Positions 6,272 through 11,204 of a stretch of 20,124 nucleotides of DNA are shown in pieces. Source of the DNA: Planktothricoides sp. SR001 (GTDB lineage Bacteria; Cyanobacteriota; Cyanobacteriia; Cyanobacteriales; Laspinemataceae); assembly GCF_001276715.1 (NCBI RefSeq), contig NZ_LIUQ01000077.1, positions 3,476-23,599 on the forward strand, written 5' to 3'. The stretch's first letter is position 1, and each line of letters begins with the position of its first letter. A program made the position numbers and the translations under genes. Under the pieces are notes generated by a model, which worked only from the letters and a program-made list of their open reading frames with translations, ran no database searches and had not been told where the DNA came from.

Positions 6272-7375
6272 TCAATTAACTCCTGCTAGTTCTGCGGCTT
6301 GAATTTTTAAAACATTCTGCAAAATATCAAAAAATGTCTGTTTGACCTTCAAGAGTAAGGTGCAATTTTCAGCATCCAGGGTTAGGGATTTAAACCACAA
6401 CTCACAGGTTTCTCTGAGGGTTTCGAGGTGTTGACAGAGGAGATTGGGAGCCAATTCTTTGGCACTCTGTTCTAGGATTTGGGGAGTAGATTGGAGTTGA
6501 TGGGTGAGGGTGAGGGTGTGAGGATTGTCTCCTGGGTTTTCAGATGAGGATGGGGGGATGGCAGTGATTTGCCATTGGTCGTTGGTGTCCAGTTCAATAA
6601 TGCCCTGTTGAGCGGCACGTTTTAGGAGGGCGCAACAACGAGCATGGGTGGCTTGAACACGATAAAGGCTATCAGCCGGAGTGGGTTGTCCGGCGGTGCT
6701 AATATTAATCGGAGCAACGCCGGTTAAAGGAACGCGGAAACTGTGCCAACGCAGCGCATCCATACCGATCTCTTTGATGAGTTCATCCGTGGCGATGTCG
6801 GGAATAGGATGGATTTTTTGGCTGGGTTTGTGAAAGGCGTAGAGTTTGATCGGTTGAACGATGATGAATTGAAATTGCTCTTTGGTGTAGCCCAAGCATT
6901 GCATCGCGGCATTGATAAGAACATCATATTTGCCATAGTTAGAGGGACGTAAAACGATGATTTTGTCGCAATGTTCTTGCAGAATTTGATCATAAATAGC
7001 AAGGTCTTTTAGGAGTTGGGTATATTCGCCGTTACGGTGTTGGAGAACTCTGTCGCAGTCGTCCCTAAAGTCGGCTGTTTTGATAAACCAGTCTTTGGGT
7101 TCGTCTTTGAGGGTGGTTTGTTCGATATCGGGGGGTAAGTCGGCGGCGAACTGGCGCGACATCGAGGCTTGGTAGATTTTGGAATGGGTTTTGAGGGTTT
7201 TAAGGAAGGTTTCGGGGTTGGGGGTTGGTTTGGGAGGGGCGATCGGGGTGTGGTTGGTTTGTTGGAGTAGGCTTTTGAAGGTGCCGGTGAAGGTAAAGCG
7301 CAGATCGGCTGATGAGGTGAGTTGCTCTGGGCGGATGGGTAGAGTATCGAGGTAGGTTAGGTGTGGTTTGGTCAT
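6272..7375 (-). CDS. DALR anticodon-binding domain protein: an arginyl-tRNA synthetase C-terminal-half paralog with an unrelated Pro-rich N-terminus
   Basis: 'IIVLRPSNYGKYDVLINAAMQCLGYTKEQFQFIIVQPIKLY' matches ArgRS 'YVLGADHHGYIPRLKAAAKAMG...VLLIQLVNLY'. 'GMDALRWHSF' is the DALR motif itself. 'SLYRVQATHARCCALLKRA' matches 'PVYYVQYAHARICSILRKA'. There is no HIGH/KMSKS catalytic N-terminal half. Confidence 0.7.
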   Translation of the reverse strand: MTKPHLTYLDTLPIRPEQLTSSADLRFTFTGTFKSLLQQTNHTPIAPPKPTPNPETFLKTLKTHSKIYQASMSRQFAADLPPDIEQTTLKDEPKDWFIKTADFRDDCDRVLQHRNGEYTQLLKDLAIYDQILQEHCDKIIVLRPSNYGKYDVLINAAMQCLGYTKEQFQFIIVQPIKLYAFHKPSQKIHPIPDIATDELIKEIGMDALRWHSFRVPLTGVAPINISTAGQPTPADSLYRVQATHARCCALLKRAAQQGIIELDTNDQWQITAIPPSSSENPGDNPHTLTLTHQLQSTPQILEQSAKELAPNLLCQHLETLRETCELWFKSLTLDAENCTLLLKVKQTFFDILQNVLKIQAAELAGVN

Positions 7376-7517
7376 AGCGAAGTTTTGGGGTGATGAGGGT
7401 TAGGTCGGATCAACTTTCTATTTTTTTGTTTGGTGAGCCTCTTGCCTGTGGCCTATTTTGCCTTGATTTAAGATATAACTGGACTAGACCAGTCGTACAA
7501 TTTTGTCAGGAGGTTGA

Positions 7518-8396: not shown

Positions 8397-8580
8397 AGAA
8401 ACCGGGTTTCTTTTCTTGGTTCCACAGTTAACTTTGGTATTCATAAAAGAAACCCGGTTTCTTTGCTGGGATACTCAGCGGGTCCGGGTTTCTTTTCTCG
8501 CTGCCACAGTTAACTGTGATATTCACAGCCGAAACCCGGTTTCTTTGCTTGGGGGTTCAGAAACCCGGTTTCTTTGCCTT
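8397..8580. repeat. Second cluster of the same MITE-like family: two and a half units, inner palindrome ccacagttaactgtg
   Basis: Unit 8397-8465 has perfect 18-bp terminal inverted repeats (agaaaccgggtttctttt / aaaagaaacccggtttct). Unit 8476-8553 ends ctttgcttggggg as at 6148-6160. A partial unit at 8557-8578 abuts the MVP stop codon. Confidence 0.8.
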
Positions 8581-11204
8581 TATTTCTCCGATCCAGAATT
8601 GATCGGACTAATTAAACCACTGGCAGTGCCAAAGAGATTAATCGGGTTTTTCCCATCAGTAATTAACACACTTTGAATCCCCAGGGCTTCCAAAAGTCGC
8701 GCCTGCATTTCTGGGCCGGCTTGGGCCATTGCCCGTAAAGTATCTGCCCCAATTGCTTGCACTTTTTGGGCAAATTCTGTGCTGTTAATTTCCGCCATCC
8801 GCTGGGCTTTGGCAATTTCCAGATTTACTAAGGCTTGTTTGTGGGTTAATTCGGCCTCCTGACGCGCTTTTAATTGGGCTAATTCCACCTCATCCCGAAT
8901 TTGTGCTGCTTGCGCTTCTTGCTGGGCTAAACTAACTGCGAGTTGCCCTTCAATTTGGGCGGCTTCTGCTTTTGCTCGTGCCTCAGCGATCGCCTGCCCT
9001 GTGGATTCAATGGCCGCATTTTCTGCTTCCAATGCTAACAGATTTTTCCGTTCAACTTCGGCGGCTGCTTTATCAATAATTTGCTGTCTTTCTAAGCGGG
9101 CTTCTGCTTCTTGTTCAATGCGGGCGGCATCATGGCGAGCGGCGGCTTCTTGGGCATCGGTGGTAATTTGAATGGCAATTTGTACCGACTTTTGCAGACT
9201 TTTTAATGTTTCTTCATCTACTGGTTCAACAGATTGAATGTCCACATTAAAAATAACTAGATTATTCGTTTTAAATCGTAATTCATCCCGAATATGCCCT
9301 TGATCATCAATGCCAAATACCGCTTGGCGAATAATTCGCGCCGAATTGCGGTGGAATTCATCAAAAGGCACCCCAGCAACCGCACCCCGAACCCGCGAGG
9401 CGATCGCCTTACAAGCGGTATCCACAAAATCAGGGGCTTGAAATAGTTTTGCGGCAGCATCTTGATTATTTTTATCCACCTCAAAATACCAGTTATAAGA
9501 TAAGCGCAATTGCAAGCGAGCATGATCGGAAGTTTCCACCGTAAACAAATCGGTCATAAAATCTGGCCCTAATAATAAAGCCAGGGATTTGATCACATGA
9601 GGACGCTTGGGAACACTGCCCGATAAACTTAAGACCGTAAAAGCTTCATCAGGGCCAAGCATCACCAATTCTGGGCCAAAAACAGTCCGGGCAGTTCGTT
9701 CTTTATAATCATGGATTTGTACCGCAGCATTTTGGGGGACATGAAACACCACAGCGCGGGTTTTATCTCGTTGAGAAAACCCAAAATCATTCTCGCCATT
9801 TTCTGATTTTTTACCCCGATATCGTCCTCGTTCAGAAACCGGATCATTTTTAATCGCCAGCAGTTCTTCCACAATGGGGGGCAATTCTTTTTCCCAGAGT
9901 TCTTCATAGGGAGAAAGCATATATGCTTGTGGCCCACTGACTAATTTTAATTCCCCGGTTTGAATGTTGCGGACATAAATCCCTTCATTTTTATCTAAGG
10001 GAATGGCTTGACGTTTTTCGATTACTTCTACTTCCACCAAGGGAATATAATCTCGTGGCCCTGGTATCATCCATAAATCACCGGGTTGATGGTGAATAAT
10101 ATTGTCCCCGGAACCTTCGCTAAAAGCTTCTGTTGCTCGTAATAATAATGCCTCTTGTTCACCGAGTACATAAACGGTTTGAATGCCGTCTTCCAAAGAT
10201 TCACCAGGATGTAAAAAGAAAGAGGCGCGTCCTTGACGAACTTCGCGCATTCCTAACTGCGGTTTACCCTGTGAATCGATGGGGTCTACTACGATACACC
10301 ATTCGCGATCGCTTAGGGTGGTAATTTCCACTTCTCCCACCACTTCTTCATAGACATCTGGAATATGAATCTCCGCCTGTTCTATGGTGACTAACCACTC
10401 ATCACCGGCTTTACGATTGCGGCCAAAAATGTCGGTAAAAGTGCGTTTTGCTCGCAGATGTAATGCTTTGCGCTCGGTCAACACATAAGCATCAAAAATG
10501 CCGATTAGTTCTTCATCAACTCCGGGTAAATAAGCCCCCTCTTCTCGGACTAGCCATTCTTCCCCTGCCCGACGACGGTTTCCCAGGCGATCGATGCAAT
10601 TTTTGCGGGCCATTAACCGTAACGCTTGATTGGGTTTAATCACGATCGCACTCACGGTTTTGAGCACTTCCACTTCGACGCGAGGAATATAAGTTCCCGG
10701 CCCTTCAAACAGCCATTCATCCCCCGCAACCCGCTGAATTGTTTGACTGTCTCCGTTAATTGTGACGGTTTCGGTGAAATCCCGAATCGCTTTTAATCGC
10801 AGGGCATAATTAGTTTCTACTACCTGCAATTGGGTGACTTTTTGTTCTAGGATTTCCCCAGGATATAAGGGAAATGGGGGTTGATCTAAACGAATTTCGC
10901 GATCGCCATAACGGAGTTGAATTTGACCATATTGATCCGCGATCGGTTGACCCGTTTCATCCCGCAAAACCGGATTAGAAACAATACAATAATAACGGGG
11001 GGGCACCACAATCATCGGCGAGGGTTTTAAAATTAACCGTTCGTGGTCACGCAGGGTAATCGTTTGTGGGCCAACTTCTAAGCGGGTGACGCCAGTATTA
11101 TTATCTAAAACGTGAATAAACTGTTGTGGTTTTAGCCGAATAATGCCATTCACCACTTCTGAAGTGATTTCCGGGGTATTTTCCATTGCCTGAATTTTAC
11201 TCAT
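8580..11204 (-). CDS. Major vault protein (MVP) homolog, full length
   Basis: The 874-aa ORF is collinear with metazoan MVP (~890 aa). The N-terminus 'FIHVLDNNTGVTRLEVGPQT..PPRYYCIVSNPV' matches human '[32 protein letters not shown]'. It has repeated MVP-repeat motifs 'AGDEWLFEGPGTYIPRVEVEV', 'AGEEWLVREEGAYLPGVDEEL', 'AGDEWLVTIEQAEIHIPDVYEEV' and 'PGDLWMIPGPRDYIPLVEVEV'. The shoulder region 'VPQNAAVQIHDYKERTARTVFGPELVMLGPDEAFTVLSLSGSVPKRPH' and 'PDFVDTACKAIASRVRGAVAGVPFDEFHRNSARIIRQAVFG...VDIQSVEPVD' match, as do the Ala/Glu/Gln coiled-coil cap helix and the 'PINLFGTASGLI' cap-ring tail. Confidence 0.9.
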   Translation of the reverse strand: MSKIQAMENTPEITSEVVNGIIRLKPQQFIHVLDNNTGVTRLEVGPQTITLRDHERLILKPSPMIVVPPRYYCIVSNPVLRDETGQPIADQYGQIQLRYGDREIRLDQPPFPLYPGEILEQKVTQLQVVETNYALRLKAIRDFTETVTINGDSQTIQRVAGDEWLFEGPGTYIPRVEVEVLKTVSAIVIKPNQALRLMARKNCIDRLGNRRRAGEEWLVREEGAYLPGVDEELIGIFDAYVLTERKALHLRAKRTFTDIFGRNRKAGDEWLVTIEQAEIHIPDVYEEVVGEVEITTLSDREWCIVVDPIDSQGKPQLGMREVRQGRASFFLHPGESLEDGIQTVYVLGEQEALLLRATEAFSEGSGDNIIHHQPGDLWMIPGPRDYIPLVEVEVIEKRQAIPLDKNEGIYVRNIQTGELKLVSGPQAYMLSPYEELWEKELPPIVEELLAIKNDPVSERGRYRGKKSENGENDFGFSQRDKTRAVVFHVPQNAAVQIHDYKERTARTVFGPELVMLGPDEAFTVLSLSGSVPKRPHVIKSLALLLGPDFMTDLFTVETSDHARLQLRLSYNWYFEVDKNNQDAAAKLFQAPDFVDTACKAIASRVRGAVAGVPFDEFHRNSARIIRQAVFGIDDQGHIRDELRFKTNNLVIFNVDIQSVEPVDEETLKSLQKSVQIAIQITTDAQEAAARHDAARIEQEAEARLERQQIIDKAAAEVERKNLLALEAENAAIESTGQAIAEARAKAEAAQIEGQLAVSLAQQEAQAAQIRDEVELAQLKARQEAELTHKQALVNLEIAKAQRMAEINSTEFAQKVQAIGADTLRAMAQAGPEMQARLLEALGIQSVLITDGKNPINLFGTASGLISPINSGSEK

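Follow-up and report, generated by a model that had tools for sequence, protein, structure and literature searches.

Repetitive extragenic palindromic (REP) sequences, bacterial interspersed mosaic elements (BIMEs) and REP doublets forming hairpins (REPINs) are short extragenic palindromes arranged in inverted pairs with a spacer of fixed length (Bertels and Rainey, 2011, PMC3116915; Di Nocera et al., 2013, PMC3733652), and GTAG-tagged REPs have previously been described in both Cyanobacteria and Chloroflexi (Di Nocera et al., 2013, PMC3733652). Bacterial miniature inverted-repeat transposable elements (MITEs), e.g., Nezha of the Nostocales, are small, non-coding and multicopy, and have terminal inverted repeats and within-genome subfamilies with similar interiors. 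Repeats that share features with both classes form two clusters in a 20,124-nt stretch of the filamentous cyanobacterium Planktothricoides sp. SR001 (NZ_LIUQ01000077.1, positions 3,476 to 23,599; this whole stretch is referred to as the window), where they stand on either side of a gene derived from arginyl-tRNA synthetase (ArgRS; the DALR gene, after its anticodon-binding domain) and a toxin-antitoxin (TA) pair, between a galU-like gene and the gene for a major vault protein (MVP) homolog. An earlier note on this DNA had read the arrangement as an insertion bracketed by MITEs at a hotspot of insertion or recombination, with the MVP gene possibly belonging to an accessory island. The analysis reported here favors a different explanation, in which window 5960-8590 (2.6 kb) is a lineage-specific junction segment that joins two conserved chromosomal blocks tail to tail; this explanation, with all its parts taken jointly, is given a probability of roughly 0.7. 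The process at work is ordinary genome plasticity, not a transposon.

The two blocks are delimited by comparison with relatives (Table 1). Block A, with the order GATase-DAGK-YbeY-DUF3285-RF1-Bax1-ABC-galU, is collinear at 88-94% nucleotide identity with GCA_053495615 (L166; window 28-5901) and with a JGI metagenome (L167; window 28-5960), and in both of these galU is followed by cinA, aroQ and more genes, with no DALR, TA or MVP gene within 10 kb. Block B, window 8590-13271, is collinear with GCA_011390955 (L011), which shares the order cytC-DUF6932-HTH-MVP and in which MVP is followed by a Na/H exchanger gene. Homology to the relatives ends within ~10 nt of the stop codons of galU and MVP, where the clusters begin. 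Since the synteny comparison that the earlier note had called for finds galU next to cinA and MVP next to the Na/H exchanger gene, and hence no adjacency of galU and MVP in the relatives, the segment is best regarded as the junction of a larger rearrangement and not as an insertion. The arrangement is identical in five Planktothricoides assemblies, the complete chromosome CP159837 (L160) among them, so that it is no assembly artifact; the same 15-20 kb was recovered in GCA_014698535, GCA_030153465, one ENA contig and CP159837, and the MVP and DALR proteins are 100% identical to their P. raciborskii counterparts.

The same gene order conserved without repeats, which the earlier note had named as the outcome that would speak for ancestral synteny, was not seen in the relatives compared. 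It could still be argued that the order is ancestral, that the relatives rearranged and that nothing was inserted in Planktothricoides, given that only three relatives were examined, each for one side. This is considered extremely unlikely, because two independent relatives agree on galU-cinA, all other genomes examined have a different 3' neighbor of MVP, the TA cassette matches plasmid DNA from another genus at 93% identity and the DALR gene stands outside its otherwise conserved context (both discussed below). Judged by gene order and content, the site is a genuine synteny breakpoint that holds genes of the mobile pool. Of the postulated hotspot, the breakpoint and the non-ancestral order are hence retained, while the single bracketed insertion is not, as the relatives lack galU-MVP and the contents are composite.

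The junction is marked on both sides by a 15-nt palindromic core, AGAAACCSGGTTTCT, of which eight matches at <=2 mismatches occur in the 20-kb window (0.01 expected from shuffles), all of them confined to the spacers, at 5948-6149 and 8397-8573; a ninth, degenerate copy lies at 6238-6252. The cores alternate between a CGGG form, AGAAACCGGGTTTCT, and a CCGG form, AGAAACCCGGTTTCT, which is the exact reverse complement of the former, so that inverted doublets result. The left cluster contains two ~85-nt units (5948-6032 and 6070-6149), the right cluster two 66-nt palindromic units (8397-8462 and 8479-8544) plus a solo core (8559-8573). Alignment of the units shows the left ones to be of the right type, with a hairpin added in the center, (G)TAGGGGCG-N10-CGCCCCTA(C), corresponding to nested GTAG-type hairpins at 5978-6006 and 6095-6123, and a matching nested hairpin is present in a unit of a related genome (L088). 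The two clusters, 2.1 kb apart, are one repeat family, in agreement with the earlier note, which was equally correct in placing the right cluster at the end of the MVP gene: its last core ends 6 nt from the stop codon (8580-8582). Both clusters occupy convergent 3'-3' spacers, galU→←DALR and VapC→←MVP, which are two of the three convergent spacers of the window. Several Logan contigs terminate at 6130-6136, many short-read contigs break off within the clusters, and the point at which a JGI contig (L008) parts from the window is precisely the first core (5947/5948). All of this further indicates that the repeats are multicopy.

A scan for core-N30-60-core in one genome per prokaryotic species yielded at least 120 stretches. 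Among the matches listed, doublets are carried by Lyngbya, Microcoleus, Oscillatoria, Calothrix, Hormoscilla, Spirulina, Tychonema, Laspinema and other cyanobacterial genera, and metagenome-assembled genomes of Chloroflexota (Thermoflexales, Anaerolineae and Ardenticatenaceae; L021, L022, L031, L038, L048, L063, L070, L077, L109) likewise contain doublets of the exact 15-nt core. The Chloroflexota units mostly form a 60-62-nt subfamily of their own (one Ardenticatenaceae unit measures 69 nt), which argues against contamination, and the family accordingly crosses phyla. Unit length shows a sharp peak at 64-66 nt, and the core pair keeps a fixed spacing of ~35 nt although the interiors vary, being alike within a genome and different between genomes. 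Tandem arrays with a period of ~83 nt are common and reach up to 10 near-identical units (L061, L069, L088); a CRISPR-like (clustered regularly interspaced short palindromic repeat) reading of these arrays was rejected because the "spacers" are near-identical within arrays. A hairpin comprising the whole unit was also rejected as the general structure, as the self-complementarity of the interiors is 0.32 vs. 0.26 in shuffles, i.e., interiors are generally not palindromic, and only the Planktothricoides subfamily is. Of 101 clusters, 95 (94%) are intergenic, and a gene 3' end adjoins 88 of these 95 (93%), so that divergent promoter spacers hold only 7.

Like bacterial MITEs, the units are small, non-coding and multicopy, fall into subfamilies whose interiors are alike within a genome, and bear terminal inverted repeats, namely the 15-nt cores, which stand in exact inverted orientation at the unit ends. 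In contrast to MITEs, however, no target-site duplications were detected: the check proposed in the earlier note, carried out on 156 distinct units, found direct flank matches of 2-8 nt to be no commoner than in shuffled pairings. A related autonomous insertion sequence (IS) or a transposase with core ends was likewise not found in the loci examined (the whole genome was not scanned), and an IS605-type TnpB element present in L001 and L160 has ends without the core. Units of 65 nt are also below the size typical of MITEs, and head-to-tail tandem arrays are common. With REP, BIME and REPIN sequences the family shares short extragenic palindromes in many copies, their organization in inverted doublets and in tandem clusters where the orientation alternates and long linkers take turns with short ones, and the location at gene 3' ends. 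It is the lack of target-site duplications together with the seat at gene 3' ends that places the repeats, which are widespread, with REP/BIME/REPIN-like sequences rather than MITEs, and the MITE identity given in the earlier note is not supported, in view of this architecture, the flanks of the 156 units and the failure to find a matching transposase in the loci examined.

The family also departs from described REP, BIME and REPIN sequences in several respects. The core has just 15 nt and lacks a GTAG or CGTC tag, the likeness to GTAG-tagged REPs being limited to the nested hairpin of the window, GTAGGGGCG..CGCCCCTAC (5978-6006), which starts with GTAG. The interior of the pair is usually not self-complementary, no REP-associated tyrosine transposase (RAYT) was identified in the loci examined, and the exact core is common to Cyanobacteriota and Chloroflexota. 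No Rfam family was found anywhere in the window at gathering thresholds, and a full-text literature search for the core sequence found no paper containing it. The repeats apparently constitute an undescribed REP/BIME-like family.

Whether it is special that two such clusters stand 2.1 kb apart can be judged from their density. In unbiased loci of the Planktothricoides clade, i.e., loci retrieved for other reasons (the window, L011, L014 and L159), exact cores occur at ~0.32/kb, or about one cluster per 6 kb, while zero exact cores were counted in ~190 kb of other cyanobacterial loci. Two clusters at this distance are unremarkable because the density in the clade and the convergent gene orientation predict them, and the bracketing itself is not beyond chance.

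The predicted folds of the clusters are very stable (z-scores against shuffled sequence of -7.4 for the right and -6.5 for the left cluster), and it has to be considered whether the repeats, instead of being selfish or neutral, were selected at these sites for a function in RNA or in regulation, e.g., as bidirectional terminators, small RNA genes or protein-binding operators, in which case their flanking position would reflect the regulation of convergent genes. A terminator search returned three terminator-like matches on the + strand that coincide in part with cores, T runs stand behind several of the cores, and the fixed core spacing as well as the conservation of the exact core across phyla would fit such a function. 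Nevertheless, the core stem comprises only 6 A/U-rich pairs, no T run follows the cores on the MVP-sense strand, the Rfam search was negative, and the arrays in other genomes, with as many as 10 near-identical units, together with the nested GTAG hairpins, look more like repeat proliferation than like regulation specific to a site, hence selection for such a function is an unlikely explanation of the arrangement. In the favored explanation, i.e., a junction between two blocks, the clusters would have been retained in convergent 3'-3' spacers owing to the tolerance of such spacers for them. Judging from the analogy with REPs and BIMEs, they probably fold in the 3' untranslated regions of galU/DALR and VapC/MVP, where they may act as transcript-end or stability structures, and as dispersed homology they could plausibly have served the recombination from which the junction arose.

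The contents of the junction segment are a composite with separate histories, consisting of a plasmid-type VapBC cassette, a detached DALR gene and the relic of a second DALR 5' end; this follows from the cassette having sharp boundaries of its own (7449 and 8204), a twin on a plasmid and a DALR relic next to it. The cassette measures 756 bp, and window 7453-8204 is 93.1% identical over 752 bp (BLAST) to plasmid p1 of Planktothrix agardhii NIVA-CYA126/8 (NZ_LR882935), a plasmid of the conjugative type, on which the cassette adjoins type IV secretion genes. Homology begins in an operator-like palindrome upstream of the antitoxin gene, at ~7449 (junction read by eye), and ends 7 nt past the VapC stop codon. 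The toxin has a PIN domain (27.9 bits vs. a cut-off of 23.6), scores below the cut-off of the VapC family NF047863 (74.7 bits vs. 140) and is preceded by a small gene that overlaps it at 7769-7778, as in VapBC modules. The block contents named in the earlier note hold for the ArgRS-derived gene and for the PIN/VapC toxin, while the similarity of the 86-aa antitoxin to Phd is below threshold: it is weakly Phd/YefM-like (PF02604, E 0.015, 15.5 bits vs. a cut-off of 29.8; TIGR01552, E 0.12). The twin on plasmid p1 is annotated as VapC/prevent-host-death and has the same two overlapping genes and the same palindromic operator-like sequence upstream, but the copy in the window is chromosomal and lies between the DALR gene and the DALR 5' relic. 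In L154 and L159 (GCA_053490095), partly deleted copies of the cassette, 89% identical, precede the DALR genes on their upstream side. The DALR proteins of these loci are just 62% and 85% identical, respectively, to that of the window, hence the cassette is horizontally mobile, and TA modules repeatedly accumulate in the spacer that precedes DALR genes.

The relic comprises the conserved leader, an ATG (8290-8292) and ~29 codons, and is severed exactly at the end of the cassette; compared with all seven full-length homologs, one extra nucleotide is inserted immediately behind its ATG. It forms a direct repeat with the 5' end of the intact DALR gene, at 75% identity, and thereby resembles this gene no more than it does DALR 5' ends elsewhere (72-82%). 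The simplest reading would be that the cassette replaced or interrupted most of a second copy of the DALR family. A chimeric origin of the intact gene, with an imported 5' part, was considered and rejected, as its identity to the closest homolog, in L159, is ~85-92% along the entire gene without a break.

These observations also bear on the view closest to that of the earlier note, in which the clusters would be MITE copies that delimit, and perhaps mobilize as a composite, a single 2.1-kb cargo of DALR and TA genes between the pre-existing neighbors galU and MVP. The same repeat family on either side, the 15-nt terminal inverted repeats of each unit, cargo genes from the mobile pool and a gene order that is absent from relatives could all be accommodated by it. 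With galU not beside MVP in the relatives, a composite cargo, a cluster spacing of 2 kb that is expected by chance in the clade, and neither target-site duplications nor a transposase with these ends seen in the units and loci examined, this view is regarded as very unlikely.

A further alternative is that the repeats are passive bystanders, in which case the junction would be what is left of plasmid or conjugative-element DNA that integrated with DALR and VapBC on it, the rearrangement would have come about by a mechanism independent of the repeats, and the repeats would have colonized the new convergent spacers, or expanded in them, at a later time. This would be consistent with the occurrence of the VapBC cassette on Planktothrix plasmid p1 and with DALR paralogs on plasmids of Calothrix PCC 6303 and Nostoc HK-01, with the general preference of the repeats for 3' spacers, with a single degenerate core at the homologous spot after galU in L167, which suggests local expansion in Planktothricoides, and with the presence in L160, ~8.5 kb upstream of MVP, of a DUF3854 gene, a kind of gene that is typically found in conjugative elements. 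On the other hand, the window contains no integrase, tRNA gene or att-like repeat, homology ends right at the cores on both sides, and clusters of the same subfamilies are also found around the DALR gene of L159, a related locus. The bystander role is regarded as somewhat unlikely, although it has a real chance of being correct.

Several points weigh against the junction explanation and the part it gives to the repeats. That the repeats brought about the rearrangement is suggested only by coincidence of position, and repeats also build up wherever spacers are permissive. The genome-wide number of cores (~2,000) is an extrapolation, and a genome-wide enrichment of clusters at breakpoints is hypothetical. 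Neither a cognate transposase (RAYT or other) nor a binding protein was identified in the loci examined (~25 kb of the chromosome CP159837 among them), a genome-wide search not having been made. The clusters have the same length and sequence in all Planktothricoides strains compared, hence there is no sign of ongoing or recent mobility. The alternative left flank of L008 may be a metagenome mis-join at the repeat, the relic may derive from a tandem paralog or from an imported fragment, and the relatives on the galU side and on the MVP side are different genomes, so that the direction and number of rearrangements are not polarized.

Table 1. Features of the junction segment and its two flanking blocks (coordinates refer to the window)
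Feature	Position	Strand	Basis
ABC ATPase	4138-4944	+	gene list
GalU-like sugar-1-phosphate nucleotidyltransferase, final gene of block A	5026-5910	+	Pfam NTP_transferase, 77.7 bits
Left REP/BIME-like cluster, convergent galU/DALR spacer	5934-6260		cores, fold
ArgRS-derived DALR protein, 367 aa	6272-7375	-	DALR_1, TIGR00456, fold matches
5' end of the intact DALR gene (29 codons) and conserved 5' leader, copy 1 of the direct repeat	7288-7404	-	repeat search, alignment
VapBC cassette: operator/promoter region, antitoxin (7518-7778), PIN/VapC toxin (7769-8197)	7449-8204	+	plasmid twin
Second DALR-family 5' end, relic	8205-8322	-	75% identical to 7288-7404
HIP1-rich (GCGATCGC) palindromic spacer, itself a small dispersed repeat	8323-8396		28-nt matches in L159
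Right REP/BIME-like cluster, convergent VapC/MVP spacer	8397-8573		cores, fold
MVP homolog, 874 aa; first gene of block B, outside the junction segment	8580-11204	-	Pfam domains
HTH_3 (173 aa) and DUF6932 (148 aa) pair with 4-nt overlap, upstream of MVP, block B	11573-12537	-	kept in closest relative

Homologs of MVP in Oscillatoriales have already been described (bioRxiv 10.1101/872010), and the window protein shows the domains Vault (229.7 bits), MVP_shoulder (174.4), Vault_2 (117.6), Vault_3 (111.4) and Vault_4 (64.1). The suggestion that its gene belongs to an accessory island could not be upheld, as the gene lies within the block shared with the closest relative. It is 94% identical to that of L011 at the protein and 89.7% at the nucleotide level, with a conserved upstream flank, and its GC content (45.7%) and coding skew (+0.07) resemble those of its neighbors. 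MVP is 76-94% identical across many filamentous cyanobacteria and has ordinary chromosomal genes around it in Allocoleopsis, Oxynema and others, none of these neighbors being conserved, while a tblastn search of 72,556 plasmids gave no match. None of the usual marks of a genomic island, i.e., deviating composition, an integrase or tRNA border, absence from relatives or presence on mobile replicons, applies to the gene, whose behavior is that of a conserved gene of the chromosome, located where block B begins. TA-like modules flank it on both sides. The overlapping DUF6932 and HTH_3 (MqsA/Xre-like) pair upstream, which is kept with MVP in the closest relative (L011 8534-9501) and not in other genera, may be such a TA-like module.

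The DALR protein consists of the second half of the ArgRS catalytic fold and the DALR anticodon-binding domain. It matches DALR_1 with 38.8 bits and positions 257-559 of the 569 of TIGR00456 with 67.8 bits (cut-off 261), it matches PDB 3fnr at E 1e-6, its top 19 fold matches are all ArgRS, aligned over 189-331 columns, and the structure model has a mean pLDDT of 66, with confidence in the C-terminal domain only. As the N-terminal half with the HIGH motif is absent, the protein cannot be a synthetase. The NrtL family (NCBIfam NF045898) is matched with 46.4 bits, below its cut-off of 340, and a literature search on "NrtL" returned unrelated acronyms only.

At ~20 of 26 other loci (L135-L159, L164, L165), the DALR gene is found 70-520 nt downstream of a homologous giant gene on the same strand. 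In the giants, which have 900-2900 aa, a core of ~1000 aa is conserved and the C-termini are unrelated, and some of them bear S8 peptidase, PPC, DUF4114, LysM or lectin modules; the Microcoleus giant (L164) terminates in EndoU_bacteria, and at one locus an open reading frame (ORF) of the CdiI immunity type lies between the giant and DALR. Such loci, with a giant secreted protein that combines a conserved core with swapped C-termini, resemble polymorphic toxin loci and their variable C-terminal toxin and immunity cassettes (Zhang et al., 2012, PMC3482391). ArgRS-like proteins are not mentioned in that survey. The giant is missing from the window, hence the DALR gene of Planktothricoides is an orphan detached from its usual context. 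Since DALR is constant while the C-termini of the giants vary, it is not a classic cognate immunity gene.

The coding strand of the DALR gene is strongly depleted in G, with a GC skew of -0.37 and fourfold-degenerate sites that are 54% C and 9% G, whereas all 17 other genes of the window have skews of +0.01 to +0.22. All 23 DALR homologs examined share this property (skew -0.16 to -0.52, third positions down to -0.82), while the four giant genes measured beside DALR have normal skews of +0.10 to +0.19. One could speculate that the protein is a conserved, non-catalytic accessory of a cyanobacterial polymorphic-toxin system that binds the anticodon of tRNA(Arg) and serves as a generic antidote or helper against RNase-type C-terminal toxins such as EndoU, that the depletion of G at synonymous sites is an adaptation at the RNA level, e.g., for surviving nuclease attack, and that the Planktothricoides copy was orphaned when a repeat-associated rearrangement removed the toxin gene; this proposal is quite improbable in its entirety.

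At the L159 locus, the interval from the giant to DALR (2850-5557) is filled with a stack of three different TA pairs (DUF2442/DUF4160, PIN/MazE, and PIN with an antitoxin) and a VapC fragment, and the DALR gene is interrupted by an IS630-type (DDE_3) transposase. A 788-aa ORF upstream in L159 was considered as a possible MVP and rejected, as it is an S8-peptidase/lectin giant. The HIP1-rich palindromic block of the window, GGGGGGCGATCGC…GCGATCGCCCCCCAAAAAAGCGATCGCC (8323-8396), has 28-nt matches of 93-100% identity (one exact) at L159 8114-8161 and 8960-8993.

Other elements and strain differences were noted in the surrounding blocks. The GalU-like protein scores 185 bits against TIGR01099, which is under the equivalog cut-off. 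An intact Bax1-I gene lies between the RF1 and ABC genes in the window (3335-3850) and in L007, while in L001 (14576-15937) and L160 (17418-18629) the IS605-type TnpB element (OrfB_IS605/Cas12f1-like) replaces ~0.5 kb at Bax1-I; in L161 another ORF, of 412 aa, is present. A small hairpin repeat, GATCCCCCCAAACCCCCTTAAAAAGGGGGGATGCAT (12594-12628), separates the DUF6932 gene from that of cytochrome c, and many short-read contigs end at 12614-12619; related copies are located after MVP in L011 (~12666-12700) and near the TnpB insertion in L001. Long imperfect inverted repeats resembling short tandemly repeated repetitive (STRR) sequences occupy two spacers 15 kb apart (1531-1730 and 16461-16616), with TTG/GTT-rich short tandem units and CAA/AAC complements that are 72-92% complementary over arms of 25-72 nt. 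A 12-nt tandem repeat (TAGGTGGCGGTG) is present in ~5 copies at 18177-18236, at the 3' end of ORF 18226-18756.

For the organism, the analysis removes the tempting reading of a vault-protein gene on a MITE-delimited island, since the plasticity lies beside MVP and not in it. The repeat family is of note in its own right, as an exact 15-nt core is found in many cyanobacteria and some Chloroflexota, marks both ends of the junction and breaks short-read assemblies; it should be useful for annotating and scaffolding the genomes of filamentous cyanobacteria, and it raises the question of which protein recognizes the core. The TA pair offers a clean, base-resolved case of a plasmid VapBC cassette captured in a chromosome. 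The most promising leads are the tight linkage of the ArgRS-derived family to giant genes that resemble those of polymorphic toxins, and its compositional anomaly.

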